Positions 1 through 63,964 of a stretch of 64,000 nucleotides of DNA are shown here, piece after piece (positions within the stretch are counted from its first letter, which is position 1; the number at the start of each line of letters is the position of its first letter). Made by a program: the position numbers and the translations under genes. Location of the stretch: NCBI GenBank assembly GCA_903860135.1, contig CAIOPG010000008.1:64127-128126 (forward strand). Direction: 5' to 3'. This DNA comes from Candidatus Omnitrophota bacterium (GTDB lineage: Bacteria; Omnitrophota; Gorgyraeia; Zapsychrales; Fredricksoniimonadaceae). The notes beneath the pieces are model-generated. The model made no database searches. It was not told where the DNA came from and saw only the letters and a list, made by a program, of their open reading frames with translations.

Positions 1-285
1 CCCCAGCCGGCCAGCCATGTCTGGCACGTATCCACCGACCATGTTTCCAGCACCTCGAGGGTCTTGTACCTTTCATCTTTCAGGAAAGACACCGCCTCCT
101 GCCGGATGACCGTATCCCGGTTGAGGACAACGATCGGCCGCGGATCGATCTTCTTGCAACGATCGACCGTCCACCAGAAATACCATTCACACTTCTTGTT
201 GTTCTCATACCCCATGTAGGGGAAAATGATCAACGGTTTGGAATGAATGCCTTTGCTCTCTGAAAGATGTGCCATATTATTCTTC
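1..285 (-). CDS. partial CDS (5' end present, 3' end beyond window edge), hypothetical protein
   Basis: ATG at 285..283 on the minus strand opens a frame that runs to position 1 without a stop (MAHLSESKGIHSKPLIIFPYMGYENNKKCEWYFWW...). It is absent from the ORF track because it is truncated, and it has no strong SD. Confidence 0.3.
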
Positions 286-304
286 AACGTTTAAGCGCGG
301 ATGT

Positions 305-1837
305 TCACGCCTGCCCCCGTTTAGCTTCCAACTGTTTGCGGATCTCATACGCCTTGTCTTCCGAAACCTCAAAGGTCGCGATAATGTAAATCGCGATCAG
401 CGTGGTCACGATCGGGATGCCGACATCGAACAGGCGCATATAAAACAGGGCATCGGGCGACTGATGCAACCCTAACTCCTGCTTGAAACCAGTGGCATTG
501 ATAAGAATACCTGCCAAAAGAGACGCGCCGGCCATGCCCAGTTTCTGTATCCACCAGTAAATGCCGCTGAACATCCCTTCCCGACGGGTACCGGTCTGCA
601 ATTCATCAAGATCGCACACATCCGCGACCATCGAAGGAACCATGGTAAAAAGCGATCCCAAGTGAAAGGCCAAAAATGGCGTGGAGATCAACAAGAGATA
701 AGGATGCTCCGGATTATAACCAATCCATTTTAATCCATACCCCACAATCGCCAACGACATAGTGAACAAGAATGTTTTACGCTTGCCCATCTTGGTGGAG
801 ATCCATGTTGTCAGCGGGATGGCAATAAAGGCTGTACAAATAGCACCAATCATGCCATTAAATCCCAACAAAGTTCCGCCATTCTGATACATCAGATCCA
901 TTGAGCTTTGCCCACCAAAGACGTAAAAGAAAATGACATACACGCTGAAAGAAGCCGCCAGCATAAAGCCGTTGAAGATCAAGAATGTCACGGCACACAA
1001 CTTGACAAACGGCAGGCACTGGAAAGAAGTCACACAATTAGCAACCAGATCCTTGATAACACCCATGGCGCCTTTTTCTTTTTTGGTTCGGGGTAAATTG
1101 GCATAAATTTCCCTGCTGAAAATCGCCGGCAGAATACCAAACACCGCAACAAAAACGCCCACAATGATCGCCACCACACGCGCACCGTGAACCATATCTG
1201 TAAACCCGGTATGCACCACAAACTTCGGGATAATGGTGAACGTGTAGTGCCACAATTTGATGGTCCATTCAATAACAAGATCTTTAGAGCTGATGACCAA
1301 AAGCACCCACGGTGCGATCATCCAAACCGGCTGGGCAAAAAAACTGGCAAAGGCTTGCAGGCGCGTGCGTTCATGATAGTCAGGGGTCATTTCATAACCC
1401 AGCGCGATCCAGGGGATGGAGAAACAGGCAAAAACTATAACGAAAAGGCACTGAACCCCCAGCACATACCAGAAATAAAAACTCTCACTCTGCCCCTGAT
1501 GGAGCTGAAACATCAACGCCAGCAAAATACCGGACACAAGGGCGCCAAAAAAGATCCATGGCCTGCGGCGACCATATTTCGTCCGCGTATTATCTGAACT
1601 GTAGCCGATCAGCGGATCTGAAAAAGCATCAATAAAACGAGGCACCGCCCCGATCAGTCCAACCGCGACAGGATTCATCCCCAGTCCGAGATTCAACACC
1701 ACGATCAACTGCCCTATGGCAGCACCAGCGAACTGATTAACAAAAGAGCCAAAACCATAAACAGCTTTCTGAAGAAAAGGGATACGGTCTTTCTTGGCTG
1801 TTATATGGTGGGTTGAATGCTCCATGCCTTGTCCCAT
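305..1837 (-). CDS. MFS transporter, glycoside-pentoside-hexuronide (GPH) sugar:cation symporter family
   Basis: 510 aa polytopic membrane protein with the GPH signature DPLIGYSSDNTRTKYGRRRPWIF near the N-terminus. Confidence 0.6.
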   Translation of the reverse strand: MGQGMEHSTHHITAKKDRIPFLQKAVYGFGSFVNQFAGAAIGQLIVVLNLGLGMNPVAVGLIGAVPRFIDAFSDPLIGYSSDNTRTKYGRRRPWIFFGALVSGILLALMFQLHQGQSESFYFWYVLGVQCLFVIVFACFSIPWIALGYEMTPDYHERTRLQAFASFFAQPVWMIAPWVLLVISSKDLVIEWTIKLWHYTFTIIPKFVVHTGFTDMVHGARVVAIIVGVFVAVFGILPAIFSREIYANLPRTKKEKGAMGVIKDLVANCVTSFQCLPFVKLCAVTFLIFNGFMLAASFSVYVIFFYVFGGQSSMDLMYQNGGTLLGFNGMIGAICTAFIAIPLTTWISTKMGKRKTFLFTMSLAIVGYGLKWIGYNPEHPYLLLISTPFLAFHLGSLFTMVPSMVADVCDLDELQTGTRREGMFSGIYWWIQKLGMAGASLLAGILINATGFKQELGLHQSPDALFYMRLFDVGIPIVTTLIAIYIIATFEVSEDKAYEIRKQLEAKRGQA

Positions 1838-1896
1838 GCATTACCTCCGATGTGTTGGATGATTATAAGATTGACAGACGGATCTACAGCCCGTCA

Positions 1897-2784
1897 TTAT
1901 GCTTTGACCGCAGAAGCCGCTGTGCGCGGCTGGCGCGCGCCGGTCCTGGCATAATCCAGGATCTTCGCGAGCAGGCCCTTCATGTCTTTGCGCGACACGA
2001 TCATATCGAGCAGCCCGTGGGCCAGCATGAATTCCGATGTTTGAAAACCCTTGGGGAGTTTCTGCCGCACGGTTGACTCGACCACGCGCGGGCCCGCAAA
2101 ACCCAGGAGGGCTTTGGGCTCGGCGATAATAATATCACCGATGCCGGCAAACGACGCCATGATACCGCCCATGGTGGGATTGGTCAGCACGGAAATATAC
2201 ACGAGCCCGGCTTTGCCATGACGCGATAACGCCGCGCAGGTCTTGGCCATCTGCATGAGCGAAATGCACCCCTCGTACATGCGTGCCCCGCCGCCGGAAC
2301 CTGACACAATGATCATCGCCAGTTTATGCGCCGTCGCGTACTCCACCGCCCGCGTCACCTTTTCGCCAACCACCGAACCCATCGACCCCATGATGAACTG
2401 CGAATCCGTCACCGCGATAACCGCAGGGCGTCCGTCGATCTTGCCGTGGCCGGTGATCGCCGCATCGTTTAACCCCGTCAACTTTTGATCGCTGGCGAGC
2501 TTTTCTTTATATGTTTTGACCCCTTTGAACTCGAGCGGATCCATCGACAACATATCAGGATCCATCTCGACAAAGGTCCCCTCGTCGATCAACACATCCA
2601 GGCGCTGGCGCGCGGTCAGCGTCATGTGATAACCGCACTTGGGGCAAAGGCTCTGATTACTGTCCACTTCTTTGGTATACGAAGGCTGGTCGCAGTCCGG
2701 GCATTTCAGCCAGACGCCGTCAGGAATAGCTTTTTTACGCGGGACACGCACAAACGTGTTACTTTTTTTTCCAAAAAGGCTCAT
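1897..2784 (-). CDS. accD: acetyl-CoA carboxylase carboxyltransferase beta subunit
   Basis: N-terminal Zn-ribbon CPDCDQ...CPKCGYH followed by the carboxyltransferase domain. The start was moved to the internal MSLFGKK Met. Confidence 0.85.
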   Translation of the reverse strand: MSLFGKKSNTFVRVPRKKAIPDGVWLKCPDCDQPSYTKEVDSNQSLCPKCGYHMTLTARQRLDVLIDEGTFVEMDPDMLSMDPLEFKGVKTYKEKLASDQKLTGLNDAAITGHGKIDGRPAVIAVTDSQFIMGSMGSVVGEKVTRAVEYATAHKLAMIIVSGSGGGARMYEGCISLMQMAKTCAALSRHGKAGLVYISVLTNPTMGGIMASFAGIGDIIIAEPKALLGFAGPRVVESTVRQKLPKGFQTSEFMLAHGLLDMIVSRKDMKGLLAKILDYARTGARQPRTAASAVKA

Positions 2785-2834
2785 GACGATCTCCACACCC
2801 GCCAAACCGCCTGCCCGAGGCAGGAAGGCCGCGG

Positions 2835-4097
2835 TTAAAGTTTATAAAGGGCAAGCCCTGACAGCGCCTTGGGATAAAAATAGGTGGTCTTGGGCGGCAT
2901 CTTCTCGCCATTCAAAGCGATCACGCGCAACTGGTCAATGCGCACCGGATTGAGGATAAAAGCCGCCTCGGCCTGGCCGTTATCCACCGCCGTGAAGCAG
3001 GCATCCATGTCCTTGTTGCAATACGTGATATCTTCGGACTTGATGTCCAGCTTGTCAAAGACAAAGGCCTTGAGGATCAACGAATCCAGGCAACGGTAAT
3101 CATCCGAACCTTCCTTGATGAACTCATTGATCTGGCTTTTGTTCTTCAGGCGCAGGAGCTGTATCCCTTTACGGGTATATAGCCCGAACGCATGCTCGTT
3201 GCGCCCCGCCTTGGCCAGCATGACCGCGAGGTCTTCCTTCTTCTTGATGCTGTCGATGCGAAAAAGCGTTTCCAGGAACCCGATGTCCCGAGGAAATGTT
3301 TTGATGATGCGATGGATGGGGAAAATCTGCAGTTCACGCGAATCGATATTCGTGAAATACGTCATCACATAATTCCAGGGCTCGTCGCCGGTGGCGTCGG
3401 GAGTCTTCTCGAGCATCAGCTCGCGGTAGCGCCGGGATACTTCATACCGGTGATGGCCGTCAGCGATAAAAAGGTTCTGATTCTCAAAAACATCAGCCAC
3501 CTGCCCGATCAGGTCCGGATCATCGAGGCGCCAAACCATGTTGCGCGTGCCGTCATCTTCGACCACATCCACAAACGGCTTGGTCATCGCCACCTTGCGC
3601 TGAAAGATCCCCTCAACCTTTTTCTGGCTATCGGAAAAACAGACAAAGATCGGGCTGCACGCCGCCTGGAGCGCTGTCCACAGCTTGAAGCGGTCTTCTT
3701 TGGCACCCGCGTGCGTTTTCTCATGCGGATGGATGCGCGTCTTTTCATTATCGATCTTCATGACCGCCAGGAACCCCATGCGGCTGTGGCGTTCACCGAC
3801 GATCTTGTATTCCTGGCGCGTATAATAAATGCACGGCTTCGCATCCTGGACCAGGACACCCGCCTTGAGCCATTTTTCAAACGTCTCGGCCGCCTTGGCG
3901 TAACGGGCATCATCTTCCCCGTGCCGGGCATCCGCCTTGGCGAGCATCACATGGATAAAATTAAAAGGACTGCGCTTCTTGAGGGCCGCTTCCTGTTCCG
4001 GGGATATCACATCATACGGCGGGCAAACGATCTTCGCCATGTCGCCGACTTTATCCGTGTTATACACAATACCATTAAAAGGTTTTATCACTGACAT
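2835..4097 (-). CDS. DUF1015 family protein
   Basis: N-terminus MSVIKPFNGIVYNTDKVGD...PPYDVISPEQ is typical of DUF1015. An AAGGAAGGAA SD lies 9 nt before the ATG at 4097; the track ORF starts 9 nt further upstream. Confidence 0.7.
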   Translation of the reverse strand: MSVIKPFNGIVYNTDKVGDMAKIVCPPYDVISPEQEAALKKRSPFNFIHVMLAKADARHGEDDARYAKAAETFEKWLKAGVLVQDAKPCIYYTRQEYKIVGERHSRMGFLAVMKIDNEKTRIHPHEKTHAGAKEDRFKLWTALQAACSPIFVCFSDSQKKVEGIFQRKVAMTKPFVDVVEDDGTRNMVWRLDDPDLIGQVADVFENQNLFIADGHHRYEVSRRYRELMLEKTPDATGDEPWNYVMTYFTNIDSRELQIFPIHRIIKTFPRDIGFLETLFRIDSIKKKEDLAVMLAKAGRNEHAFGLYTRKGIQLLRLKNKSQINEFIKEGSDDYRCLDSLILKAFVFDKLDIKSEDITYCNKDMDACFTAVDNGQAEAAFILNPVRIDQLRVIALNGEKMPPKTTYFYPKALSGLALYKL

Positions 4098-4106
4098 CCG
4101 CCGCAT

Positions 4107-4194
4107 TTCCTTCCTTGATTTTGATATTCAACCCCGTCAAACATCCATTTAGTATACAAAGAAAATCTGATTTGACAAGAAAAGGTTACACGAA
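4107..4194 (-). promoter_or_regulatory. sigma70-type promoter module (copy 1 of an ~88 bp duplicated element) driving the DUF1015 gene
   Basis: The minus strand reads TTGTCA-N16-TATACT (-35 at 4178..4173, -10 at 4156..4151), followed by AAGGAAGGAA. A near-identical copy lies at 5506..5593. Confidence 0.6.
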
Positions 4195-4466
4195 ACAGTG
4201 GGAACGAAACAGGTACAGGGAGAACGTAACTCTTATTGGTAAACCTCAGAACGTTTCGCGATCTTAGTCATGACGACAGGCCAAGTTCCTTTTCGATCCT
4301 GGCAGAAGGGATGCGGGGCGTTTTACGCGAAGCTTCTATCTCTTTCCAAAACTTTGGATCAGCGTATTCCATGGATTCAATCAGATCTTCCCAAACATTC
4401 TGAGGTAAAAGAACCCCTTTTGCCTGGCCTTTACTGTTGACCAGCCAGATTATTCTTGTGAGCGGG

Positions 4467-4820
4467 TTAACTTAACGGCAGGCCTAATAAATCGCGCAAC
4501 CTTGAATCTATTTCTTTCTGCATGGAAACACTAACATCTCCCAAAAAGCGCGCCGTGCTTGATTGTAACAGGCAAAAGATCTTATCTGTCTTGACCAAAG
4601 ATGCCACATGCAACCCGGTCCTGCTAAAATCAACATGCGTCGAAGAAATCAGGAGGTCAACTGACCGCGGCGAATCAATCACTGAACTAATGGCGATAAA
4701 TAGCGCGTCTTGACTTGTGCGATTGTATTGTTCAGAAGATATAACGAGGGCAGGACGAACTTTATTCCCAATCAAATCAGAAAAAGGATATTTAATCAGT
4801 ACAATATCCCCTTTCTTCAC
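4467..4820 (-). CDS. mazF: type II toxin MazF/PemK family endoribonuclease
   Basis: 117 aa, MKKGDIVLIKYPFSDLIGNKVRPALVIS matches the PemK/MazF N-terminal SH3-like barrel. There is a 4-nt overlap with the upstream ORF. Confidence 0.8.
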   Translation of the reverse strand: MKKGDIVLIKYPFSDLIGNKVRPALVISSEQYNRTSQDALFIAISSVIDSPRSVDLLISSTHVDFSRTGLHVASLVKTDKIFCLLQSSTARFLGDVSVSMQKEIDSRLRDLLGLPLS

Positions 4821-5053
4821 GACAAAGCCCTGCCATCTTCAAGCGTATAAATATCTTCAGCCGGATTGTCGAGGAATGAAAACATCCCTGTTTGAAAGGG
4901 AAGCCGCATTAATTCTTGGTCAGAAATTCCACCTTGAACTAAAGTCGGGGCAAAGACAAGGGTGCGATTAAAGAAAAAGGTCGCTTCAGCCGCGATCTCT
5001 GGTTTCTGATTTATTTTATAGCCAAGCGTCTCATGATCAATTGTTTGTGTCAT
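4817..5053 (-). CDS. hypothetical protein, candidate cognate antitoxin of MazF (non-canonical)
   Basis: 78 aa ORF translationally coupled to mazF (ATGA overlap). It has no AbrB/MazE or RHH signature. Confidence 0.4.
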   Translation of the reverse strand: MTQTIDHETLGYKINQKPEIAAEATFFFNRTLVFAPTLVQGGISDQELMRLPFQTGMFSFLDNPAEDIYTLEDGRALS

Positions 5054-5056
5054 CGC

Positions 5057-5455
5057 CTACACCCCCGATTGTGAAATTTGAAACCGTCTGGCGATGATGG
5101 GCTCGCTATCACATAATACTTCAAATCTATATTCACCGTAATCAGGAAAAGGAACATTGATCATTTCAAAATTAAATTCAACAATTTGCTTCGGGCTCTG
5201 AAAATTAATCTGCCCTTCCATCCCAAACAAATCAGTTTCTTTGCCTACTTGCAAACAGCGCAACCGCATCGTGTAGACCCCCGTGCCCTCTGTTAAGGAA
5301 AGAAATACATTTAAACGAGGATGCGCACAGGGCACCGTTGACGTTGTAATATTATTGAAAAGCCCCACAAGAGACTTCTTCCCCGTCGTCTTGTCGTCAA
5401 TAACAACATCACAAATCGCCATCACTAAAGCCATTGGCTTAGGTTTTTTAATCAT
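5057..5455 (-). CDS. hypothetical protein, first gene of the three-gene MazF module
   Basis: The first ATG gives MIKKPKPMALVMAICDVV... (about 133 aa). The track ORF is extended to a TTG at 5539 inside the promoter repeat. The stop lies 3 nt from the next gene. Confidence 0.4.
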   Translation of the reverse strand: MIKKPKPMALVMAICDVVIDDKTTGKKSLVGLFNNITTSTVPCAHPRLNVFLSLTEGTGVYTMRLRCLQVGKETDLFGMEGQINFQSPKQIVEFNFEMINVPFPDYGEYRFEVLCDSEPIIARRFQISQSGV

Positions 5456-5505
5456 ATGATGAGCACGCTCAGGATAATGGTCAAAAGAAACTTGGGGCGA
5501 AAATA

Positions 5506-5593
5506 CTTCCTTCTTGATTTTGATATTCAACCCTGTCAAACATCCATTTAGTATACAAAGAAAACCTGATTTGACAAGAAAAGGTTACACGAA
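5506..5593 (-). promoter_or_regulatory. sigma70-type promoter module (copy 2 of the ~88 bp duplicated element)
   Basis: Identical -35 TTGTCA (5577..5572), 16-nt spacer and -10 TATACT (5555..5550) as copy 1, with 2 substitutions plus a 1-bp indel across the element. Confidence 0.55.
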
Positions 5594-5611: not shown

Positions 5612-5944
5612 TCAACGCAAGCGCCGCGCGGCATAGGTGAAGGGCAAGAAATACTTCCGCCAGGAGGCATCGGTGGAACCAAACTCGTTTGAGCCCATAA
5701 AGAAATCAACAACCGCCTCGCGCACACGCGCCACTTCCTTAAGGCGCGGCAGGCCCGATACGCTGTCCAATGTCAGATCCAGAAGCTCCAGGGCCCTTTC
5801 CACGGCCCTGCGGCTGTAAGCGGGATTCTGCTTCACCTGCCAGTTGAGCGCGCGCTCCACCTCACTGCCGATATTGGCCATTTGCGCACACAGCGTCAAT
5901 TCCTTCCAACGCCCGGCAGCCAGATCCTTGTGCTGATAACTCAC
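5612..5944 (-). CDS. hypothetical helical protein
   Basis: 110 aa ORF with GC and codon usage like the host and no recognisable motif. Confidence 0.35.
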   Translation of the reverse strand: MSYQHKDLAAGRWKELTLCAQMANIGSEVERALNWQVKQNPAYSRRAVERALELLDLTLDSVSGLPRLKEVARVREAVVDFFMGSNEFGSTDASWRKYFLPFTYAARRLR

Positions 5945-6190
5945 GCTGTCACCCGCTGCATGACAAGACCCATGACAAAATCCCCAAACATCCCGGCCGC
6001 CATCTGGCGAAGTTCCACGCGGGAAATTGTATCCGTTATTATTTTCAATTTTTCCATCTCCCTGCCATTATTCAACCCCAAAAACCAGTGCTTACTATAA
6101 CGCCTGCCATAATCCGGGTCAATCTTGATCTTTTCCTCATGTTATGGGAAACTACCACCTTTTATTCACTTGGCAAAGATAATCAAGAAC

Positions 6191-6238: not shown

Positions 6239-9200
6239 TTATGACGGCAACAGGCTCTTGACCGGGGTGATGTTAAGGATCACCGGCCGAAACCCGCTCA
6301 CGCCATCAGCCTTGATCCGCGCCAACTCCGCCGGATCCACCGTAACCTTCATCCCCGCGCCCGTGCGCTCGACCTTGAGGTTCAGCTGAGCCGGGTCGAA
6401 GTCGATACCACCGGTGGCGGAATTGTCACGAACCTCACGCATCAAACTTTGCCGTTCCGCAGTCATCTTAACATGATTCAATGTCCACTGAACATCTCGA
6501 CTATTCACACTTGTTTTTCCATCTTGTCCCAGGAAATTCTTCATTGTTATCGGCTCAACACCCGACTCTCTACTGGCGGGAATAATTAGCCTAGGATTCG
6601 TCACAGCCATTTCATCAAACCTCCCATGAATAATGTCGGCAAACGACGTTCCTTTATAATCCGCGATAAGAGATCTGTTAACAAACCTCGGCCCCCCTGT
6701 ATGCACTAATGAAATAATGATTTCATTTTCATACAACTCTAATTTGCTAACCTTTTCCCATCCATTTGAAGAAATATCCCAAACAGTCGGCTCTTCGTTA
6801 CCAACCACCACCCCCTGCAATGCAACATTAGCAATTCCAGGTGCAGCCGTTAAAGGCATATTAATATCACTCTCTTGAAGTATAAAATCCTTAAGATGTA
6901 GGTTATCTGGGACAATAAACTTACTATTTTGAAGATAAGAATTTCCATCCAAAATTAATTTAACACGCTTTGTGGGATCTGGATTTCTAATCGTCACATT
7001 TTCTAAGATCACATGCGCCCCGTCAGGAACAACAAGCTCTATGGTTTCATCAATTTGCACACGGCCTATCCTCGTTTCTTTACCGGGCATACTTTTTGCT
7101 TTATCATGAAAACCTCTAATATACCGATCAACATTCCCATCATCCTGAAATCCATTAACTTGACCAACAAGAATTTTATCTTCCTTCACAGAAACAGGCT
7201 TTGTCACAGCTGTATAAAATTTCTGTTCCTCCGCTGATAACGTTGCAAAGAAAGCAGGATTATACTGTTTCCCAACTGTTAAATCAAAATAACTTCCAGG
7301 GAATATACGTGCTGACTGTCCATTCATTACCCCTTCCTTATACGCAACCTGCTGCTGATCAAAAGCATCCCCAGTGTAAACAAGCAAAAACGCATTAGGA
7401 ATAATGCTGTTTGTATCAATCTTCTTTAACATAAAAAGCATTTGAACAGGCGTAGGTTTTTCCTGAAATAGTTTTTGCACTCCCGTATTTGAATCTGCAA
7501 AGTTTTCCCCCAAATCATGCCATTTATTCTTTTTAATACGTGCAATAGCAGCAGCCAAAGCAGGTGATTTCTTAATGACTGCGTTTTCCGTAATTCCGTC
7601 TTCTTTACCGTCATTGGCTTGAACCAACTCATCCAAAGCTTGAAAAACAGCTTGTTTATCTTGCGGCGCGAAAACCTGTCCAGGAACGCCAAGAATAGTT
7701 ACCCCGAAATTTCCATCATTCTTAAGTTCTGATATTTGCCGAGATCCAACCTTGATACCACCCACAAAATTATATGTTCCATCAGATGCCGCCCAAACCA
7801 GTCGACGCTGAGCACCTTCACCAAAATGAAGCATTTGTGAACGAACGGCCAGGATTGTTTTCATCACTTCCAAATAATATCTTGACCCATTAGCCGTTGG
7901 GAAATTACCGATATGCCCATTTTTTACTGTCGGCGGACCGCCACGATCTTTCGTGCCACCATCTGTAATAATATTGACATTAGCATTTTTAAAAAATTCA
8001 TATCCCATTGTATTCTGCACCGCCTGCACCGCAGATGTCATCCCGCATCCATCCCCCCTCAAAACCTTAACAGACTCTTCAACACTCAAAAATATCTGCA
8101 CATACCCATTGTATTGTTGAGATATTTGTTTCATAAACTCAAGGTACGCAATATGCGAATTCTCAGAAGCTCTTTTAATATTAGTTACAAAATACTGCAC
8201 GCCTAAAACACCACTCTTTAGTGCCGCCTGAAAAACCGCATCATTACGATCAGATTTTTCCTGAGTCTCAAAAGAAAACGGTTCTTTAACTTTTAATTTC
8301 CTAGCTTCTTCCTCTGTTATTCCATTTTCAATATATTGACCAACAACATCCTGAACATCACTCACGCTCATTGTTGTTAAATCAATAGGCTTGGGAGGAT
8401 TCTCCGTCTTTGCTAAAAAAAGCGCTGGCTTTGTCTCTTTGGGGCCATCAAGCTCATTAACACGGGCTTCTTCATAAATCCTATCAATTGCCGAAATATC
8501 ATGCCGCTCTGCCGCTTGTATAATTTGCTGAGAATGACGATTATTTTTTTCATAAAACATCTTTATCTTCTCGATCTTTACCAACTGCTCTTTTTGTCCC
8601 GCCACATCATTATCATCCCAGCGATCAATTAAATGCCCAAATCCATTTTCAGCTGCAAAAAATAATGTTGCTCTTTCCGGCGCATCCACCTGAGAACGCT
8701 CAAAATGAACTTTCGCTCTTTCTGGCAAATTAGAGCTTTTAACAAACTCAACCTGCTCTTGTGGCGTCGCAGCCCTGTCAAATGTCGTCTGCGGCCTCGC
8801 TTCAGGCTTCCCTGGCTTCTGCGTAATAGCAACCTTAACACTACTCAAATCATGACCCGCATCAGCCGCATCCCGAACCTGTACCGGCAATTTTTCAGCC
8901 CTGTCAACCTTTTGAGCATTCTCCCGAACCTTTGCCGCTAGTTCCGTACCCTGAAACCCCCCCGAAAAATACTTGCGCGGGAGGGTTTCCTGGGTGACGG
9001 GGTCTACGTCTTCTTTGATGTAATTGAACACGCCTTCTTTATAGGCGGCGATGTAGCGTTGGTAGATCTTTTCTTTGTCGGTCTTGTCGAGGATATCGAC
9101 GCCGTCGACTTTGTTCTTGTCGGCATAAACCTGGCCGAGGAGGCTGTCTTTAAGGTTGTTCTTGTACCACATGGCCAGCACCATCGCCTGGTAAACCTGG

Positions 9201-10021
9201 CGCAGGAGGGCGAAGTTTTTGCCGGTGTTGATCTCTTTCTCGATTTCGGGGATCACGACCTGGCGCATGACGTCGCTCGCTGATCGGGCGGCGTCGCGGA
9301 TGTCGGCATTGTTCATCTGGCCCATGCCGGCGGCCGGATCCTTCATGTTCTGCTTGAGCGCCAGGTAATCTTCTTCCATCATGACCTTCATGCGCGTCGC
9401 ACCGAGGATCGCGGTATCACCCACCTCATAAACCTTGGCCTGATCGGGCATGATCCAGACTTTATTGAAGGTATTGGTCGGCAGGTCAGCGGTACCGAGC
9501 ACCTGGGTAACCCTGGCGTACACGCGTGACCAGAATTCCTTGCCCAGGTCTTTTTCAGGATAAATGAGTGAAGCGGTCAGCTGTTTGAGCACATAGTCCT
9601 GCGCCAGAAGGTCGCGGCCCATTTCAGTCTGGCCAAAGGCTTCAGGCACAATGCGGTCGTGTTCGTAGGGCGACAGGTTGACCCATAGGTCTTTTTCAGG
9701 GATGGTGAGCGAGGCAAGGAAATATTTAACGAGTTTTTCGGTTTCGGTCTTGATGAGCGCCTGATTGGCATCTGTATCGCCGCTGTCGACGATAAAATCA
9801 AACACCAGGGGCTGGTCAGGGTACACCTTGACCGCGCGCAGAGACACCGGCATATACGCGGCGCTCGGCAGAACCATGGCACCGGGCCTGGGCAGGTCCA
9901 TCACGCCCTGGGCATAACCGGCCGGCAGAAGGCCTGTCAGCATAAAGCAAACCACGACCACTGCGGCTACCGTTTTTCTTAATCCCCGACCACAAGACGT
10001 TCTGTCAAAATGACCCAACAT
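6239..10021 (-). CDS. giant secreted protein (1260 aa): signal peptide, conserved N-terminal module, AT-rich variable core, conserved ~55 aa C-terminal domain
   Basis: Signal-peptide-like N-terminus AAVVVVCFMLTGLLPAGYAQG. The N-terminal ~230 aa are homologous to ORF 23135..23902, with about 85-90% nucleotide identity over a ~160 bp stretch (9550-9700 vs 23500-23660). The C-terminal GGIDFDPAQLNL...GFRPVILNITPVKSL is shared with ORFs 22730..23050 and 63125..63964. GC is ~42% across 6480-8750 versus ~60% in the flanks. Confidence 0.7.
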   Translation of the reverse strand: MLGHFDRTSCGRGLRKTVAAVVVVCFMLTGLLPAGYAQGVMDLPRPGAMVLPSAAYMPVSLRAVKVYPDQPLVFDFIVDSGDTDANQALIKTETEKLVKYFLASLTIPEKDLWVNLSPYEHDRIVPEAFGQTEMGRDLLAQDYVLKQLTASLIYPEKDLGKEFWSRVYARVTQVLGTADLPTNTFNKVWIMPDQAKVYEVGDTAILGATRMKVMMEEDYLALKQNMKDPAAGMGQMNNADIRDAARSASDVMRQVVIPEIEKEINTGKNFALLRQVYQAMVLAMWYKNNLKDSLLGQVYADKNKVDGVDILDKTDKEKIYQRYIAAYKEGVFNYIKEDVDPVTQETLPRKYFSGGFQGTELAAKVRENAQKVDRAEKLPVQVRDAADAGHDLSSVKVAITQKPGKPEARPQTTFDRAATPQEQVEFVKSSNLPERAKVHFERSQVDAPERATLFFAAENGFGHLIDRWDDNDVAGQKEQLVKIEKIKMFYEKNNRHSQQIIQAAERHDISAIDRIYEEARVNELDGPKETKPALFLAKTENPPKPIDLTTMSVSDVQDVVGQYIENGITEEEARKLKVKEPFSFETQEKSDRNDAVFQAALKSGVLGVQYFVTNIKRASENSHIAYLEFMKQISQQYNGYVQIFLSVEESVKVLRGDGCGMTSAVQAVQNTMGYEFFKNANVNIITDGGTKDRGGPPTVKNGHIGNFPTANGSRYYLEVMKTILAVRSQMLHFGEGAQRRLVWAASDGTYNFVGGIKVGSRQISELKNDGNFGVTILGVPGQVFAPQDKQAVFQALDELVQANDGKEDGITENAVIKKSPALAAAIARIKKNKWHDLGENFADSNTGVQKLFQEKPTPVQMLFMLKKIDTNSIIPNAFLLVYTGDAFDQQQVAYKEGVMNGQSARIFPGSYFDLTVGKQYNPAFFATLSAEEQKFYTAVTKPVSVKEDKILVGQVNGFQDDGNVDRYIRGFHDKAKSMPGKETRIGRVQIDETIELVVPDGAHVILENVTIRNPDPTKRVKLILDGNSYLQNSKFIVPDNLHLKDFILQESDINMPLTAAPGIANVALQGVVVGNEEPTVWDISSNGWEKVSKLELYENEIIISLVHTGGPRFVNRSLIADYKGTSFADIIHGRFDEMAVTNPRLIIPASRESGVEPITMKNFLGQDGKTSVNSRDVQWTLNHVKMTAERQSLMREVRDNSATGGIDFDPAQLNLKVERTGAGMKVTVDPAELARIKADGVSGFRPVILNITPVKSLLPS

Positions 10022-17055: not shown

Positions 17056-17087
17056 ATCATGCCCCTTCCGTAACCCTCATCACCATA

Positions 17088-17114
17088 TTATCACTCAGAT
17101 ACCAAGAGTGCTAA
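17088..17114. promoter_or_regulatory. CIRCE element (HrcA operator) upstream of clpB
   Basis: TTATCACTC-N9-GAGTGCTAA, one mismatch from the TTAGCACTC-N9-GAGTGCTAA consensus, 33 nt upstream of the clpB start codon. Confidence 0.7.
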
Positions 17115-17126
17115 TTGTTCTCGCTT

Positions 17127-17158
17127 AAAAAACCCCTTGGCTAAATCACACCAAGGGG
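17127..17158 (-). terminator. rho-independent terminator (minus strand)
   Basis: CCCCTTGG-11 nt loop-CCAAGGGG with a T6 run on the minus strand, separating the DUF2442 gene from the clpB promoter. Confidence 0.5.
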
Positions 17159-17333
17159 TGCATCTATTTCGAAATTAATACAACCTGCGAATTTTGTCAA
17201 GTATTTTTCATCAGAGATGTTGAATTGCCGACGATGAAACATGAAAATCACACACGTTTACAACAACGGAACGGCTTGAAACCGTTCCCTACGAAAATTT
17301 TCACATTAACCAATATCTGTCACCTTGACATCC

Positions 17334-17591
17334 TCACGCATGCGTCATTACAGGAGCCTGTGGCACCGCAAACGGTATAATAGCATCAATAGAAAGATCC
17401 TCGTCGATCAAGGGCCAATGGATACCATATCCGGAAGAAGTCACCTCGCAATACCGACGCTGATCCATAGATGAACGTGCAAGCCGAGCAGAGATCTTTC
17501 GAACCTCAACCCGATAACCAACCTCATCAATATTCAATAACATATAACCATGATCAAAAGAAATATCAGTAACACTATGTATTTTCTTCAT
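17334..17591 (-). CDS. DUF2442 domain protein
   Basis: 85 aa partner of a DUF4160 gene, with a 1-nt gap between the two. Confidence 0.55.
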   Translation of the reverse strand: MKKIHSVTDISFDHGYMLLNIDEVGYRVEVRKISARLARSSMDQRRYCEVTSSGYGIHWPLIDEDLSIDAIIPFAVPQAPVMTHA

Positions 17592-17592
17592 A

Positions 17593-17844
17593 TCAACGCC
17601 TTTCCTTCAATTCCTGCCATCTCTCAGTAATATAATCGAAATGATCAAAAATAATTCTACGGATCTCCCGTGATTCACTGGCTTTAAGCCCATATGAAAA
17701 GGCTTCCCGGACGTCAAACGTTTTTGAATCAAGCCAGAATTTACATTCAACCCCAGCTTTCCGCGCATGAATATGCATGGGCTCATGAGACTCATTGGAA
17801 TAAAAAAACAGTCGCCATCCGGATATTTCAAGTATTGTCGGCAT
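17593..17844 (-). CDS. DUF4160 domain protein
   Basis: 83 aa; the MHIHARKAGVECKFWL motif is typical of DUF4160. Confidence 0.6.
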   Translation of the reverse strand: MPTILEISGWRLFFYSNESHEPMHIHARKAGVECKFWLDSKTFDVREAFSYGLKASESREIRRIIFDHFDYITERWQELKERR

Positions 17845-17895
17845 AATTATAACCCAATTAAACTCATATCGAAACGATTTGAAACCGTTCTTCCA

Positions 17896-18099
17896 TTATT
17901 GATCAATCCCCTCAAAAAGCTCCTTTAAATCCTTTGTCTTAGTCACTCTCCCAGTCTTAATATCAATGGTCGCCCGACGTTCGTCAGCTTGCCACTCTTG
18001 CGTATAAAAATACTGCTGATCCTTTGGCACTGCAATCTGATTATTGTGTCCTAATTGGTATTGCATCAATGCCCCCTCCAAACATAACATCTGCATCAC
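17896..18099 (-). CDS. small hypothetical protein translationally coupled to vapC
   Basis: 67 aa ORF whose ATG overlaps the vapC stop (ATGA). Confidence 0.3.
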   Translation of the reverse strand: MMQMLCLEGALMQYQLGHNNQIAVPKDQQYFYTQEWQADERRATIDIKTGRVTKTKDLKELFEGIDQ

Positions 18100-18539
18100 G
18101 CGATGTCAAAGTGTTGCACATCAAAGGGATTAAATACCGACGCGCCGGTCATGGCGACATCTTTGGCATTGCGCGTGACGAGGGTCAAATTATGATGAAT
18201 CGCCGTAGCCGCCAAAAGGCCGTCGATCACAGGGATCAATACTTTGTTTTTCTGCGCATGACCGGCAATTACGCCCCAGCGGTCAGCCACACCTTCACTC
18301 ACTGGAATAATACGCCCTTCAAAACGGCGACGCAGGTCTTTTTCCAGCCAGGCCTCGATACTCACCCGGCGACCAGCGTCCGTCAGGGCGGCAACTCCTT
18401 TTCTAATTTCACCCAGCGTCAGAACACTCAAATAAAGCAGATCTTCATCGAGCCCTTTAAGCCATGCCGTGACCTTGGCATCAGGCCGTGGCCTGATCAA
18501 TTCGGAAATGATATTCGTATCCAGAAGAAAGCCGCTCAT
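18096..18539 (-). CDS. vapC: type II toxin VapC (PIN domain)
   Basis: MSGFLLDTNIISELIRP... with the PIN acidic residues (D6, E?, D in VIDGLLAATA and TRNAKD). Confidence 0.8.
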   Translation of the reverse strand: MSGFLLDTNIISELIRPRPDAKVTAWLKGLDEDLLYLSVLTLGEIRKGVAALTDAGRRVSIEAWLEKDLRRRFEGRIIPVSEGVADRWGVIAGHAQKNKVLIPVIDGLLAATAIHHNLTLVTRNAKDVAMTGASVFNPFDVQHFDIA

Positions 18540-22729: not shown

Positions 22730-23050
22730 TCACTTCCCCAATATCACCGAAAGACCTAGGAATTCCGAAAGACTTGCCAGCGGCTTAACGCCCATGATCA
22801 CCGGTGACACGCCGGAGGCGTTCTGCAGACGGGCAAGCATGGCAGGGTCGAGGTTGAATTCAATCGCCGGGCCATGGCTGTTGGTGGTCATGTTGATTTG
22901 GGAGGGATTGAGGTCGATACCGCCGGAGTGATTTACATTCATACTATTAGGAACATTTTTCGATGGTAATGCTTCAGGCATATTAATAACTTGCGTATAC
23001 AAATTAATTATATTGGGAAGTGATAAATCTCCTTTAAACTCAACATCCAC
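22730..23050 (-). pseudogene. remnant encoding only the conserved C-terminal module of the giant-protein family
   Basis: SGGIDLNPSQINM...NLDPAMLARLQNASGVSPVIMGVKPLASL aligns with the last ~55 aa of ORF 6239..10021. Upstream lies only ~85 bp of AT-rich filler before the N-module ORF. Confidence 0.4.
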
Positions 23051-23134
23051 ATACTTTGATCGTTTCTTATAAATCGAAGGATAATAAAAACGAATTTTTT
23101 TCCATCATCAGAAACAAACTCTTTGGCAACCGTT

Positions 23135-23902
23135 TCAATAAATAATCGTAACGCAGGACTGCCCTCCCCACGCTAGCGCGGGGGCGGGTGATAATTGGTT
23201 GATGCCCTGGGTCGCTTGCGTATCCGATAAAAAAGGGCGGGTCATGGCCCCGCCCCTACGTGAGAATTCATCATTTTCTGCGGTGGCCTTATAATCGGAC
23301 TCCAACATTACCTTTAACCTGGATTCAACGACGTAGGCGGCGTCTTGGTGTTCGTAGACGGTGGCTTTCTCGGGGGTGATCCAGACTTTGTTGAAGGTGG
23401 CGACGGGGATATCCGTGGTGCCGTAGCGTTTTAAGGCTTCGGCGTAGACTTTAGCCCAGAATTCCTTGCCGACTTTATCGTCGGGATAAATGACGGATGC
23501 GGTAATTTGTTTAAGAATATAATCCTGCGCCAAAAGGTCGCGGCCCATTTCGGTCTGGCCAAAGGCTTCGGGCACAATGCGGTCTTTTTCATACGGACTT
23601 AAATTCACCCACAGGTCTTTCTCGGGAACCGTGAGCGAGGCGAGAAAATATTTGATCAGGCGCAGGGAATCCCCTTCAGCCTTCGCATCCCCTTTATCCA
23701 AGATAAAATCAAAGCGGAAAGGGTCGTTCCGATACACCTTGATGCCCTTTAAAAGCGGCGGGGCAAAGACCGGGCTCAAAGCCAGGCGCGTACCCGGCGC
23801 GGGCAATGTCACCTGCGCATAAAGCCGTGCATCCGGCATGATCAATGCCGTGATCAGGATGCTGGCGATAAACTTATATAGTTTTACCCTGAAATTATAC
23901 AA
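23135..23902 (-). CDS. truncated paralog of the giant protein (signal peptide + conserved N-terminal module only)
   Basis: A TTG start at 23902 with a GAGGG SD gives a signal peptide KLYKFIASILITALIM. There is about 70% aa identity to residues ~60-280 of the giant protein, after which it diverges and stops. Confidence 0.5.
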   Translation of the reverse strand: MYNFRVKLYKFIASILITALIMPDARLYAQVTLPAPGTRLALSPVFAPPLLKGIKVYRNDPFRFDFILDKGDAKAEGDSLRLIKYFLASLTVPEKDLWVNLSPYEKDRIVPEAFGQTEMGRDLLAQDYILKQITASVIYPDDKVGKEFWAKVYAEALKRYGTTDIPVATFNKVWITPEKATVYEHQDAAYVVESRLKVMLESDYKATAENDEFSRRGGAMTRPFLSDTQATQGINQLSPAPALAWGGQSCVTIIY

Positions 23903-24063
23903 AATTATCCCTCTATTGATATAAATGAACCCAACCTTAATGATAAAGATAACATATATAAGCGAATGCAATATGTTGGACAAATTGGCAATTGAATTGA
24001 CAATTTGTCCAGTGCAGGAAATCTTGGGGAATGCTTTATGATTAAATCAGGGGAAATAAATCT

Positions 24064-24489
24064 TCAATCACGCCCTGCATCAAACGGGTTAACAATCTTG
24101 ATACCTTCATACAGGCACCCGACACTAAAATCTTCGCTCAGGATCTCGTCGGCCTTGGCTGACCTAGCTGCCGCGATGATCAATGAATCCCAAAAAGACA
24201 GCTTCAACCGCGACTTCAATCGCATCCCTTCGGTCAACAGCGCCGCATCATTAACAACAACATTCCATTGAAGCAAGTCTTCAATAATTTCTGCTGCCAG
24301 GTTTTCCGAGACACCCTTCCTGACAAAATTAACATAACACTCCTGCAAAACCTGAATACTGATGCTCGGCGGAATCGCTTGTCCCCATAATGATTTAAGG
24401 ATGCGCACCGCCATCGTGTGCCGCGCCCCCGCATCAAGGTCATAGGCATAAATGATTATATTGGAATCAACGAACACCTTTTTACTCAT
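24064..24489 (-). CDS. PIN domain toxin (VapC-like)
   Basis: MSKKVFVDSNIIIYAYD... PIN fold. Confidence 0.75.
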   Translation of the reverse strand: MSKKVFVDSNIIIYAYDLDAGARHTMAVRILKSLWGQAIPPSISIQVLQECYVNFVRKGVSENLAAEIIEDLLQWNVVVNDAALLTEGMRLKSRLKLSFWDSLIIAAARSAKADEILSEDFSVGCLYEGIKIVNPFDAGRD

Positions 24490-63124: not shown

Positions 63125-63964
63125 TTACGGCGTTATCAGGCCCTGCAACAGGCTGGCGCCGACAGGCTGTATGCTCAGGATCTCGGGCACAAGGCCGTCG
63201 ATCCGTATATTCTCCAGATTCTGCTGGCTCACCGGCAAAACCACCCCGGCCCCATCACGCTTGATCTGCATGTCAAGGTTCGACTGCGCAAAGTCGATAC
63301 CACCTTTTAAATCTTGACTATTATCATGGTTAGTCGTGAATTTGTTATGTTTATCCTGCTCAATAAGTTGTTTCGCTGTGTTACCTTTCAACATTCCCTC
63401 AATATAGGGCCTGACACGAAAATATTCATTCGAGTCTTTTTCAAAAATGGCCTTAAGTGCCACACCCACACGATAATTCAGACTATCTATCTGAACTGTT
63501 GGAAAATGATCCAAGAATGGCGTCATGCTGATAACATGCAACGCCATGGCGCGTCCATTCCCACGCTTAAAATCCTCTTCCATTGCTGTATTAAAACGAG
63601 CAAATATCCCATTTAAATAATTTTCAGTTATCGCGCTCGCCTGATCGACCTTAAAAGAAATAACAACAGGATTCATTTGAAAGTCTGGATTGCCTATAAC
63701 TTCTAAACTCTTAACATCCCAATTCATGGCATCAGCAAATATTTTCGTATAGTTTCTTACGTCGCCATTATCGACAAATGGCATCGATACCGTAATAACC
63801 TGTCGATCATTTGATGTTATTTTTATCCTTTTATAGATCGTTGCATTGATATTGTTAATATTCCTTTCATTTTCTAAGCTATGCTTTAGAATATAGATCG
63901 TTGCATTGATATTGTTAATATTCCTTTCATTTTCTAAGCTATGCTTTAGAATAAAAGCATGCAA
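63125..63964 (-). CDS. protein with AT-rich N-terminal region and conserved GC-rich C-terminal domain shared with the giant protein; possibly 5'-incomplete at window edge
   Basis: The C-terminus GGIDFAQSNLDMQIKRDGAGVV...GLVPEILSIQPVGASL aligns with the C-terminus of ORF 6239..10021. GC drops sharply at ~63310. It contains an in-frame 60-bp tandem duplication. Confidence 0.5.
   Translation of the reverse strand: MHAFILKHSLENERNINNINATIYILKHSLENERNINNINATIYKRIKITSNDRQVITVSMPFVDNGDVRNYTKIFADAMNWDVKSLEVIGNPDFQMNPVVISFKVDQASAITENYLNGIFARFNTAMEEDFKRGNGRAMALHVISMTPFLDHFPTVQIDSLNYRVGVALKAIFEKDSNEYFRVRPYIEGMLKGNTAKQLIEQDKHNKFTTNHDNSQDLKGGIDFAQSNLDMQIKRDGAGVVLPVSQQNLENIRIDGLVPEILSIQPVGASLLQGLITP
63834..63953. 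repeat. perfect 60-bp tandem duplication (2 copies) inside a CDS
   Basis: TAGATCGTTGCATTGATATTGTTAATATTCCTTTCATTTTCTAAGCTATGCTTTAGAATA x2, in-frame, which duplicates the peptide ILKHSLENERNINNINATIY. Confidence 0.9.

Follow-up and report, generated by a model that had tools for sequence, protein, structure and literature searches.

How does a gene come to have ends that match its genome and an interior that does not? The question is raised by a gene of a Candidatus Omnitrophota bacterium, located at positions 6239-10021 on the minus strand of a 64,000-nucleotide (nt) stretch of contig CAIOPG010000008.1 (assembly GCA_903860135.1; hereafter the window). A preliminary description of this DNA had proposed that an internal cargo was replaced in frame between two fixed recombination arms, and same-locus polymorphism in two species now supports such a swap: genes with identical or nearly identical ends carry unrelated cargos at one and the same locus. 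The best explanation, to which we give a probability of about 70%, is that recombination within or next to conserved terminal modules imports cassettes of low guanine-plus-cytosine (GC) content, exchanging the cargo in frame. All sequences compared here derive from metagenome assemblies.

Results

A gene with genome-like ends and an AT-rich interior

The gene and its immediate downstream neighbour are organised as follows.

6239..10021, minus strand: complete open reading frame (ORF) with an ATG start, 1260 amino acids (aa), made of signal peptide, N-module, linker, enzyme core and C-module
9911..10021, minus strand: predicted Sec-type signal peptide, aa 1-37, read from the sequence with a putative cleavage position
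8954..9910, minus strand: conserved N-module (N-arm), aa 38-356, terminating in PRKYFSGG, GC at third codon positions (GC3) about 0.71
8573..8953, minus strand: semi-conserved linker, aa 357-483, intermediate GC3 of 0.41
6437..8572, minus strand: cargo core, aa 484-1195, GC 39.9%, GC3 0.32, a nucleotidyltransferase-like Rossmann domain and a left-handed beta-helix
6419..8953, minus strand: exchanged cassette of about 2.5 kb, the segment differing between the alleles P0001 and P0003 by protein comparison
6239..6418, minus strand: conserved C-module (C-arm), aa 1202-1260 plus stop, ATGGIDFDPAQLNLKVERTGAGMKVTVDPAELARIKADGVSGFRPVILNITPVKSLLPS, GC3 0.83
5612..5944, minus strand: 110-aa ORF downstream of the gene; the same protein lies beside another family member in record L089

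The encoded protein, P0001, is found as exact copies on 5 contigs, the longest of 128 kb; the gene had been called giant, but at 1260 aa it is only large. Its signal peptide has a basic n-region (RGLRK) and a hydrophobic stretch at aa 17-35, the sole one in the protein, followed by ...GYA|QG; the protein ends in ...KSLLPS. In an AF2 model of the N-module, itself of moderate confidence only, a helix and a strand at aa ~360-398 are confidently placed within the N-module fold.

The outlier in composition is the interior of the gene and not its ends. GC content is 55.0% over 8750-10021, 39.9% over 6480-8750 and 58.3% over 6239-6480, for 54.4% in the whole window. The mosaic noted in the preliminary description is confirmed, with corrected figures: about 60% had been given for each end and about 42% for the interior. 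GC3 makes the mosaic plainer: it is 0.71 in the N-arm (aa 1-356, with 0.83 in its inner part, aa 211-300), 0.41 in the linker (aa 357-483), 0.32 in the core (aa 484-1195) and 0.83 in the last 60 codons, compared with 0.72-0.73 in the adjoining ClpB, DnaK and DnaJ genes. Because the contrast resides almost wholly in third codon positions, with transitions at aa ~340-420 and ~1170-1200, it is not due to amino-acid composition. A recombination site or repeat shared by both junctions was looked for and only a run of seven G at the N junction was seen; no recombinase gene adjoins the window gene.

Unrelated cargos in the same arms at one locus

A comparison of orthologous loci, which the preliminary description had called for, shows a core that varies between strains at one syntenic locus while the arms stay constant. 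The first case is the allele P0003, a protein of 1123 aa from another sample. Its contig and the window share one gene order (ClpB-HrcA-GrpE-DnaK-DnaJ-Zn_ribbon, the gene itself, the 110-aa ORF, then DUF1015-Carboxyl_trans-MFS), and on either side of the gene the intergenic spacings are the same in both, the 110-aa gene included. P0003 is identical to the window protein at aa 3-356 and over the last 59 aa, the whole of the C-module, so the C-terminus is indeed conserved as had been noted, and the two interiors are unrelated. Identity stops at the 5' edge of the linker, between aa 356 and 357 (TTTTCGGGGGGGTTT|CAG). The P0003 interior holds an HxGH-like motif (PLHFGQ) and SSTAIR, which we take to be marks of NadD/cytidylyltransferase-type nucleotidyltransferases, and its nearest relatives are cores 40-44% identical in other family members.

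The two configurations belong to very close strains. The P0003 contig bears a one-residue variant of the Zn-ribbon protein, P0124, and two short contigs with P0124 are 99.68% identical to window positions 10717-9164; the five mismatches all lie within the Zn-ribbon gene, and the opening 858 nt of the family gene have none. Three independent assemblies of the P0124-variant strain (L082, L083 and a 7,052-bp contig) all end exactly at window position 9164, within the N-module, which suggests that co-existing variants or paralogs diverge there and break short-read assembly graphs. Beyond ClpB, the P0003 contig carries other genes, namely Exo_endo_phos and a pair of small ORFs, so that another junction close to the locus also varies between strains; in the window, an AT-rich stretch (~40% GC) without a long ORF occupies 17056-18100, between ClpB and a PhdYeFM/PIN toxin-antitoxin pair.

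A second, independent polymorphism is found in a sister species. Its proteins P0002, whose core is of the same type as that of the window (44% identical), and P0013, whose core is UDPGP, share a single locus in which PPK-CHAD-Metallophos-ROK is followed by the gene and the gene faces TPR-PG_binding-ETF-ETFQO. The P0002 locus was recovered in 5 and the P0013 locus in 20 independent assemblies (the DNA of the latter being taken from another record, L003). The arms of the two proteins are 97% (N) and 93% (C) identical, yet the proteins differ from residue 3 on, with substitutions private to each allele in both the signal peptide and the tail past the C-module. At the protein level, identity between them climbs towards the cargo and reaches 100% even in a loop that varies among family members. 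Allele-specific substitutions at both ends, within the same flanks, indicate that P0002 and P0013 are not assembly hybrids.

The record L002, from a close relative of the window organism, represents the ROK locus and has a UDPGP-type core behind a window-type N-module (93% aa and 85% nt identity to that of the window). Taken with P0002 and P0013, it means that one cargo type occupies different loci in two species and that one locus holds differing cargos. Nucleotide identity between the window and L002 is lowest in the signal peptide (60-67%), higher in the outer arm (75-93%) and highest in the inner arm (92-100%, with an exact run of 86 nt at 9082-8997); exactly at the junction it falls to 57%. 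The P0003 linker equals that of L002 at about 20 of its first 23 residues, after which the cores diverge, which points to further breakpoints.

A third configuration of the window locus is seen in L089 (ERZ4223863 NODE_3470, 1-5004), which encodes the identical 110-aa protein and, past the gene on the downstream side, matches the window at 98.3-98.4% identity. Its family member, of at least 2,216 aa and with a GC3 of 0.40-0.56, contains a CofD domain (PF01933) and ends in a divergent type of C-module (GGVDFQITDDKMEI...). An 82-aa ORF comes next, and the sequence becomes similar to the window only from window position 6140, about 100 nt 3' of the stop codon of the window gene. This variant and the cargo alleles together make the window locus a hotspot for replacement of the cargo only or of the whole gene.

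In the same flank, the window carries a 1.3-kb AT-rich island (4195-5506) with a DUF6941 ORF (5057-5539) and a PemK/MazF-type toxin ORF (4467-4820). The island is bounded by 88-nt direct repeats (4107-4194 and 5507-5593, 96.6% identical) and is absent from L089; it looks like a strain-variable insertion.

The cargo is a nucleotidyltransferase-type enzyme

The class of the window cargo emerged from its fold. The preliminary description had suggested a search of the core for an enzymatic or toxin fold, and the answer is enzymatic: a Rossmann-like nucleotidyltransferase domain precedes a left-handed beta-helix, as in proteins of the FKP (GDP-fucose pyrophosphorylase), GMPPB and AGPase type. The cargo is an FKP/GFPP-like sugar-1-phosphate nucleotidylyltransferase with a beta-helix, of putative activity, and belongs to the same broad, nucleotide-sugar pyrophosphorylase-like class as UDPGP. 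Scans for sequence-level membership gave no Pfam or NCBIfam match at E<=1 (NTP_transferase, Fucokinase or UDPGP models). The signatures of the class are an N-terminal loop of the G-x-G-T-R type and a (V/I)EKP motif. In the core alignment the E-K-P triplet, presumably typical of sugar-nucleotide pyrophosphorylases, is invariant, and a conserved, non-canonical G-D-G-x-G-M loop replaces GxGTR.

Relatives of the core (aa ~484-1195) occur only within other arm-bearing Omnitrophota proteins, at 28-44% identity. Word-indexed homology searches with each of the two cores alone returned 3 and 5 proteins and no near-identical donor. A core-profile scan of JGI metagenome contigs found 4 loci, at 30-38% identity and all in arm-bearing genes, with no close donor, and an exact 62-nt pattern of the inner arm was absent from these contigs. 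FKP-like cores have a GC3 of 0.32-0.34 in genomes of 43-47% GC, and the same value in this genome of 54-57% GC. This uniformity fits a recent import; a constraint specific to the cargo could also account for it. The cores observed are those of L084, L085, L087 and the window (6437-8572), whose hosts differ by more than 10 GC points.

A large modular family in Omnitrophota

The window gene is a member of a very large, Omnitrophota-restricted and apparently undescribed modular family. A homology search with the window protein gave more than 4,700 significant proteins, the named ones mostly from Candidatus Omnitrophota; the similarity, of 50-70% identity, is confined to the initial ~27-35% of the query. 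A hidden Markov model (HMM) of the N-arm, built from the N-module alignment (A2) and run exhaustively against representative clusters, matched 8,356 of them at E<=1e-3 and 6,718 at E<=1e-30. When a single representative genome of each species was scanned, more than 547 family loci emerged; genomes carry several of them, in some cases in tandem. The literature on Omnitrophota that we searched holds no description of the two-module frame or of cargo exchange.

The frame is strikingly regular. The N-module follows directly on a hydrophobic N-terminal signal and reads LPxPG ... WVNLSPYE ... FNKVWI ... PRKYFSGG, the C-module stands at the extreme C-terminus and reads GGIDF ... DPA ... PVI..I.PV.SL, and the cargo between them is variable and non-homologous across the family; the window protein conforms in all three respects. 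Both modules are at the extreme termini in 114 of the 120 matches listed, with a tail of 0-70 residues after the C-module, and the N-arm match begins within ~45 residues of the N-terminus in 149 of the 150 HMM matches listed, for proteins of 420 to 4,969 aa. An 'AQ' after the signal peptide is nearly invariant in the family alignment. Many polar residues of the N-module are invariant, and the module may itself be an enzyme or a ligand-binding domain. Short members (420-611 aa) were considered as possible cargo-less proteins with both modules; they have no C-module and appear truncated.

Most cargos are enzymes that act in the metabolism of nucleotides, nucleotide sugars or sugar phosphates. 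Among the 120 matches listed, the commonest annotated Pfam content between the arms is UDPGP (18 proteins). Others carry nucleoside-diphosphate kinase (NDK), adenylate (ADK), guanylate or cytidylate kinase, NUDIX, phosphoglucomutase (PGM), aldolase plus GAPDH (FBA+GAPDH), transaldolase, aldose epimerase, PPDK_N, protein kinase, HATPase_c, response regulator, methyltransferases, HEAT repeats, or no recognisable domain. Tandem arrays of 2-4 family genes with differing cargos occur in L052, L056 and L066 (also L006, L012 and L051); in these genomes the arms are about as diverged from one another as they are between genomes.

The modules themselves match no existing model. Pfam, NCBIfam, PADLOC and PHROGs were scanned with the full-length window protein, with P0003, with the fragments of the paralogs and with the ORF downstream, and nothing relevant was returned; in particular, the C-module has no match in Pfam or NCBIfam and the 110-aa ORF matches no family in the four collections. 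Profiles of the N-arm and of both core types, that of the window and that of P0003, gave no meaningful match when searched against PDB sequences, and no solved relative of the N-module fold was found.

Decayed and orphan copies in the window

Two further loci of the window contain parts of the frame.

22730..23983, minus strand: decayed paralog with a partial N-module (matching aa 14-225), unrelated residues, three in-frame stops and a C-module, without cargo
63125..63964, minus strand: 279-aa AT-rich ORF ending in a family C-module, without N-module or signal peptide

The preliminary description had recognised the N-module copy of the first locus, and the copy is real (23135-23983, minus strand, 52% aa identity over 212 aa). 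Its nucleotide identity had been overestimated at 85-90%: positions 9550-9700 give 78.8%, the most similar 160 nt give 80.6%, and blastn aligns 295 bp at 74.6%. The AT-rich core has no counterpart there, as stated, nor a second copy anywhere in the window. Three features had gone unmentioned: the decay of this paralog, its C-module at 22769-22927 (ORF 22730-23050), homologous to the last ~55 residues of the window protein and in frame with the partial N-module, and a third C-module at 63149-63328 (GGIDFAQSNL...PEILSIQPV). The decayed paralog sits in an island of 46-50% GC and adjoins a PIN-domain gene (24064-24489). The ORF at 63125-63964, which lies at the window edge and holds a perfect 20-aa tandem duplication (ILKHSLENERNINNINATIY x2), could be an orphan cargo and C-arm fragment or a silent cassette.

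Discussion

How the cargo may be exchanged

The arms of the family, which had been viewed as two fixed recombination arms, are indeed conserved; they are not mere recombination substrates, being protein modules found phylum-wide. We propose that the sequences encoding them would in addition serve as homology arms. Homologous recombination or gene conversion would cross over near the inner arm edges (PRKYFSGG | ... | GGIDF), and the whole cargo would be replaced in frame from another family member, a paralog or other Omnitrophota DNA. The arms would retain the composition of the resident genome, and the incoming cassette the low GC3 (~0.32) that its cargo has in low-GC Omnitrophota. We hold with fair confidence both that crossovers in or at the inner arm edges replace the cargo and that the window cassette is probably a relatively recent import from a low-GC source.

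The composition of the family as a whole is in line with this proposal. Of 63 family genes measured in other genomes, 55 have a higher GC3 in the N-arm than in the core (mean difference +0.11, Wilcoxon p=1.7e-10). Family cores are also richer in AT than the flanking DNA, an effect that is strongest where the genome is high in GC. The gap between N-arm and core in the window gene (0.386) is above that of all 63. The identity gradients also fit repeated exchange with inner-arm crossovers, and they are seen in the window/L002 and P0002/P0013 sets only.

Several points weigh against exchange through the arms. The breakpoints of P0003 and P0002 are known at the protein level only, and the synonymous comparison of the arms covers the first 858 nt of the gene. 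No near-identical donor of either core was found, the nearest relatives being 44% identical, so that import from a low-GC family member is an indirect conclusion. Among 54 within-genome paralog pairs, arms are barely more alike than between genomes and show no gradient: in the absence of general homogenisation, recombination seems limited to sets with similar arms, and family-wide concerted evolution of the arms, which we had also considered, was dropped on account of the small within-genome excess and the flat profile. In L089 the whole gene was replaced, including a C-arm of a different type, and arm-mediated exchange is thus not the sole route. The identity of the P0001 and P0003 arms means that an assembler could have switched paralogs in building the P0003 contig, and three further assemblies of the P0003-linked strain break in the N-arm at window 9164. 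Finally, the functions suggested for the export signal and the arms are assigned from sequence, with low confidence.

The alternative that survives best, although we find it unlikely, is that the cores are native and long resident, the arms having been raised in GC by frequent, GC-biased gene conversion among paralogs or the cargo family being intrinsically constrained to AT-rich codons; cargo differences between strains would then represent an old balanced polymorphism and no recent import. The inner N-arm (aa 211-300) and the C-arm, with a GC3 of 0.83, do exceed the genome-typical 0.72, the inner arm is also the most homogenised portion, and the GC3 of ~0.32 in FKP-like cores of all genomes examined could reflect the nature of this cargo instead of its past. 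However, the arms overall match the housekeeping neighbours (0.71 vs 0.72-0.73) and it is the core that deviates. Unrelated cargos in high-GC genomes also have a low GC3 (0.35-0.45 in L002, 0.46 in L003, 0.37-0.44 in L040, L044 and L047), arms within genomes are not generally homogenised, and other AT-rich islands of the window look like strain-variable insertions.

Still less probable is an assembly artefact, in which paralogs with identical arms would have been joined from flank A to core B and the 'alleles' would be chimeric contigs. In its favour, P0001 and P0003 share identical arms of about 1.07 kb and 0.18 kb, lengths that exceed the k-mers used in assembly. The strain linked to P0003 has three assemblies that halt at a single N-arm point, and many family contigs terminate inside family genes. 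Yet the same flanks surround P0001 in 5 assemblies, P0013 in 20 and P0002 in 5, and a graph switch internal to the arms cannot yield P0002 and P0013, which differ from residue 3 and in the tail. Moreover, no database protein is at least 90% identical to P0001 except itself, though at least 4 samples yielded an assembly of the second strain, and L089 adds a third, independent arrangement whose sequence is unique as far as the edge of the shared flank.

A polymorphic toxin or contact-dependent competition system with a cognate immunity gene is very improbable: a trafficking-like conserved N-terminus with a variable payload, orphan or decayed copies nearby (22730-23983 and 63125-63964), toxin-antitoxin modules in the neighbourhood and one family member with PF15538 (which we take to be Toxin_61) speak for it, but the window payload has a biosynthetic nucleotidyltransferase fold, family payloads are mostly housekeeping-type enzymes, no Rhs/YD, PAAR, VENN, LXG or toxin model of Pfam, NCBIfam or PADLOC is matched, the variable part is internal with a fixed C-terminus, and the 110-aa protein, unchanged beside a different family member in L089, is therefore not a co-varying immunity gene.

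Comparison with known systems

The process is of a known kind, cassette exchange between conserved flanks, operating in an apparently undescribed family. Flagellin and HsdS are better analogues of it than polymorphic toxins. Flagellin (FliC) has conserved ends for export and assembly around a hypervariable centre that is swapped between strains by recombination or lateral transfer and is enzymatic in 'flagellinolysin' variants. Here too, conserved N- and C-terminal ends frame a centre that is probably replaced by recombination and can be an enzyme; no flagellin model is matched, however, the N-module (~320 aa) comes after a Sec-type signal peptide, and the enzymes carried as cargo are not homologous to one another and range from 300 to more than 2000 aa. 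In HsdS of type I restriction-modification systems, target-recognition domains are exchanged between conserved regions. Both cases involve in-frame domain swaps via conserved segments common to paralogs and functional diversity at the strain level, but HsdS swaps homologous domains of the same function, often by site-specific invertases, whereas the family exchanges unrelated enzymes and the window gene has no adjacent recombinase.

The preliminary description had likened the gene to polymorphic toxin, Rhs and contact-dependent inhibition (CDI) loci. The likeness stands for the architecture: as in Rhs and CDI/CdiA proteins, a conserved delivery part is joined to payload cassettes swapped at a conserved junction, payloads are strain-specific and orphans lie nearby. 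It does not extend to a toxin system: no toxin domain was found, and no immunity gene co-varies with the cargo. In Rhs and CDI the payload is C-terminal and followed by an immunity gene, whereas here it is internal, the C-terminus is conserved and the enzymes are of metabolic type. Models of defence systems (PADLOC) gave no match.

As with cargo bearing the C-terminal domain (CTD) of the type IX secretion system (T9SS), or with dockerin-bearing cellulosomal enzymes, a conserved module is appended to many unrelated enzymes for a common route, with the difference that here there are two modules, one per end. No T9SS CTD, dockerin, exosortase-type signal or sorting signal of the PEP-CTERM, GlyGly-CTERM or LPXTG type was found in the window protein with Pfam and NCBIfam models, and its C-module has no transmembrane tail, the protein having no hydrophobic segment after aa 35.

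A parallel within the phylum is provided by the Archaeovorins, giant Omnitrophota proteins of up to 85,804 predicted aa that have numerous transmembrane regions, SecA DEAD helicase domains in most cases and N-terminal regions generally devoid of identifiable domains (West-Roberts et al. 2023, bioRxiv 10.1101/2023.11.21.568195). The N-arm/C-arm frame and cargo exchange are not described for them in that study. HEAT, NUDIX, PPDK_N, HATPase_c, Radical_SAM, PGM/PMM and FBA are common to both groups, and in both, sugar-phosphate enzymes that are normally cytoplasmic are predicted to lie outside the cytoplasm. Unlike an Archaeovorin, the window protein has 1260 aa, one hydrophobic segment, one cargo and no SecA match. 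More speculatively, the shorter members of the family may be unit modules of which the phylum's giant multi-enzyme proteins are composed.

Significance

Repeated arms break short-read assemblies, and family genes are therefore systematically fragmented in metagenome-assembled genomes. Payload exchange would exemplify the shuffling of non-homologous enzymes in a fixed frame, beyond surface antigens, toxins and restriction specificity subunits, and the two modules could be useful in engineering if they turned out to work as portable tags for export or assembly.

Omnitrophota are abundant, uncultured and ultra-small, and they are thought to depend on a host or prey. Judging from sequence, the arms might act as export and sorting or assembly handles that place varied enzymes outside the cytoplasm, a set that strains would diversify by exchange; we advance this less firmly than the exchange itself. 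With low confidence, the displayed enzymes could possibly process the nucleotide and sugar pools of host or prey. It is tempting, though decidedly speculative, to extend this to a 'plug-and-play' export frame used across the phylum for thousands of different, normally cytoplasmic enzymes of glycolysis, signalling and nucleotide or nucleotide-sugar metabolism, the modules doubling as homology arms and the repertoire being shuffled between strains and loci. Were this the case, the set of exported enzymes would be supplied by horizontal transfer and reshuffled rapidly, its members acting perhaps in a common surface assembly or on host or prey cells. A signal-peptide family with more than 8,000 representatives and without a model in Pfam-A, NCBIfam, PADLOC or PHROGs offers a concrete, testable handle on the interactions of Omnitrophota with other cells.

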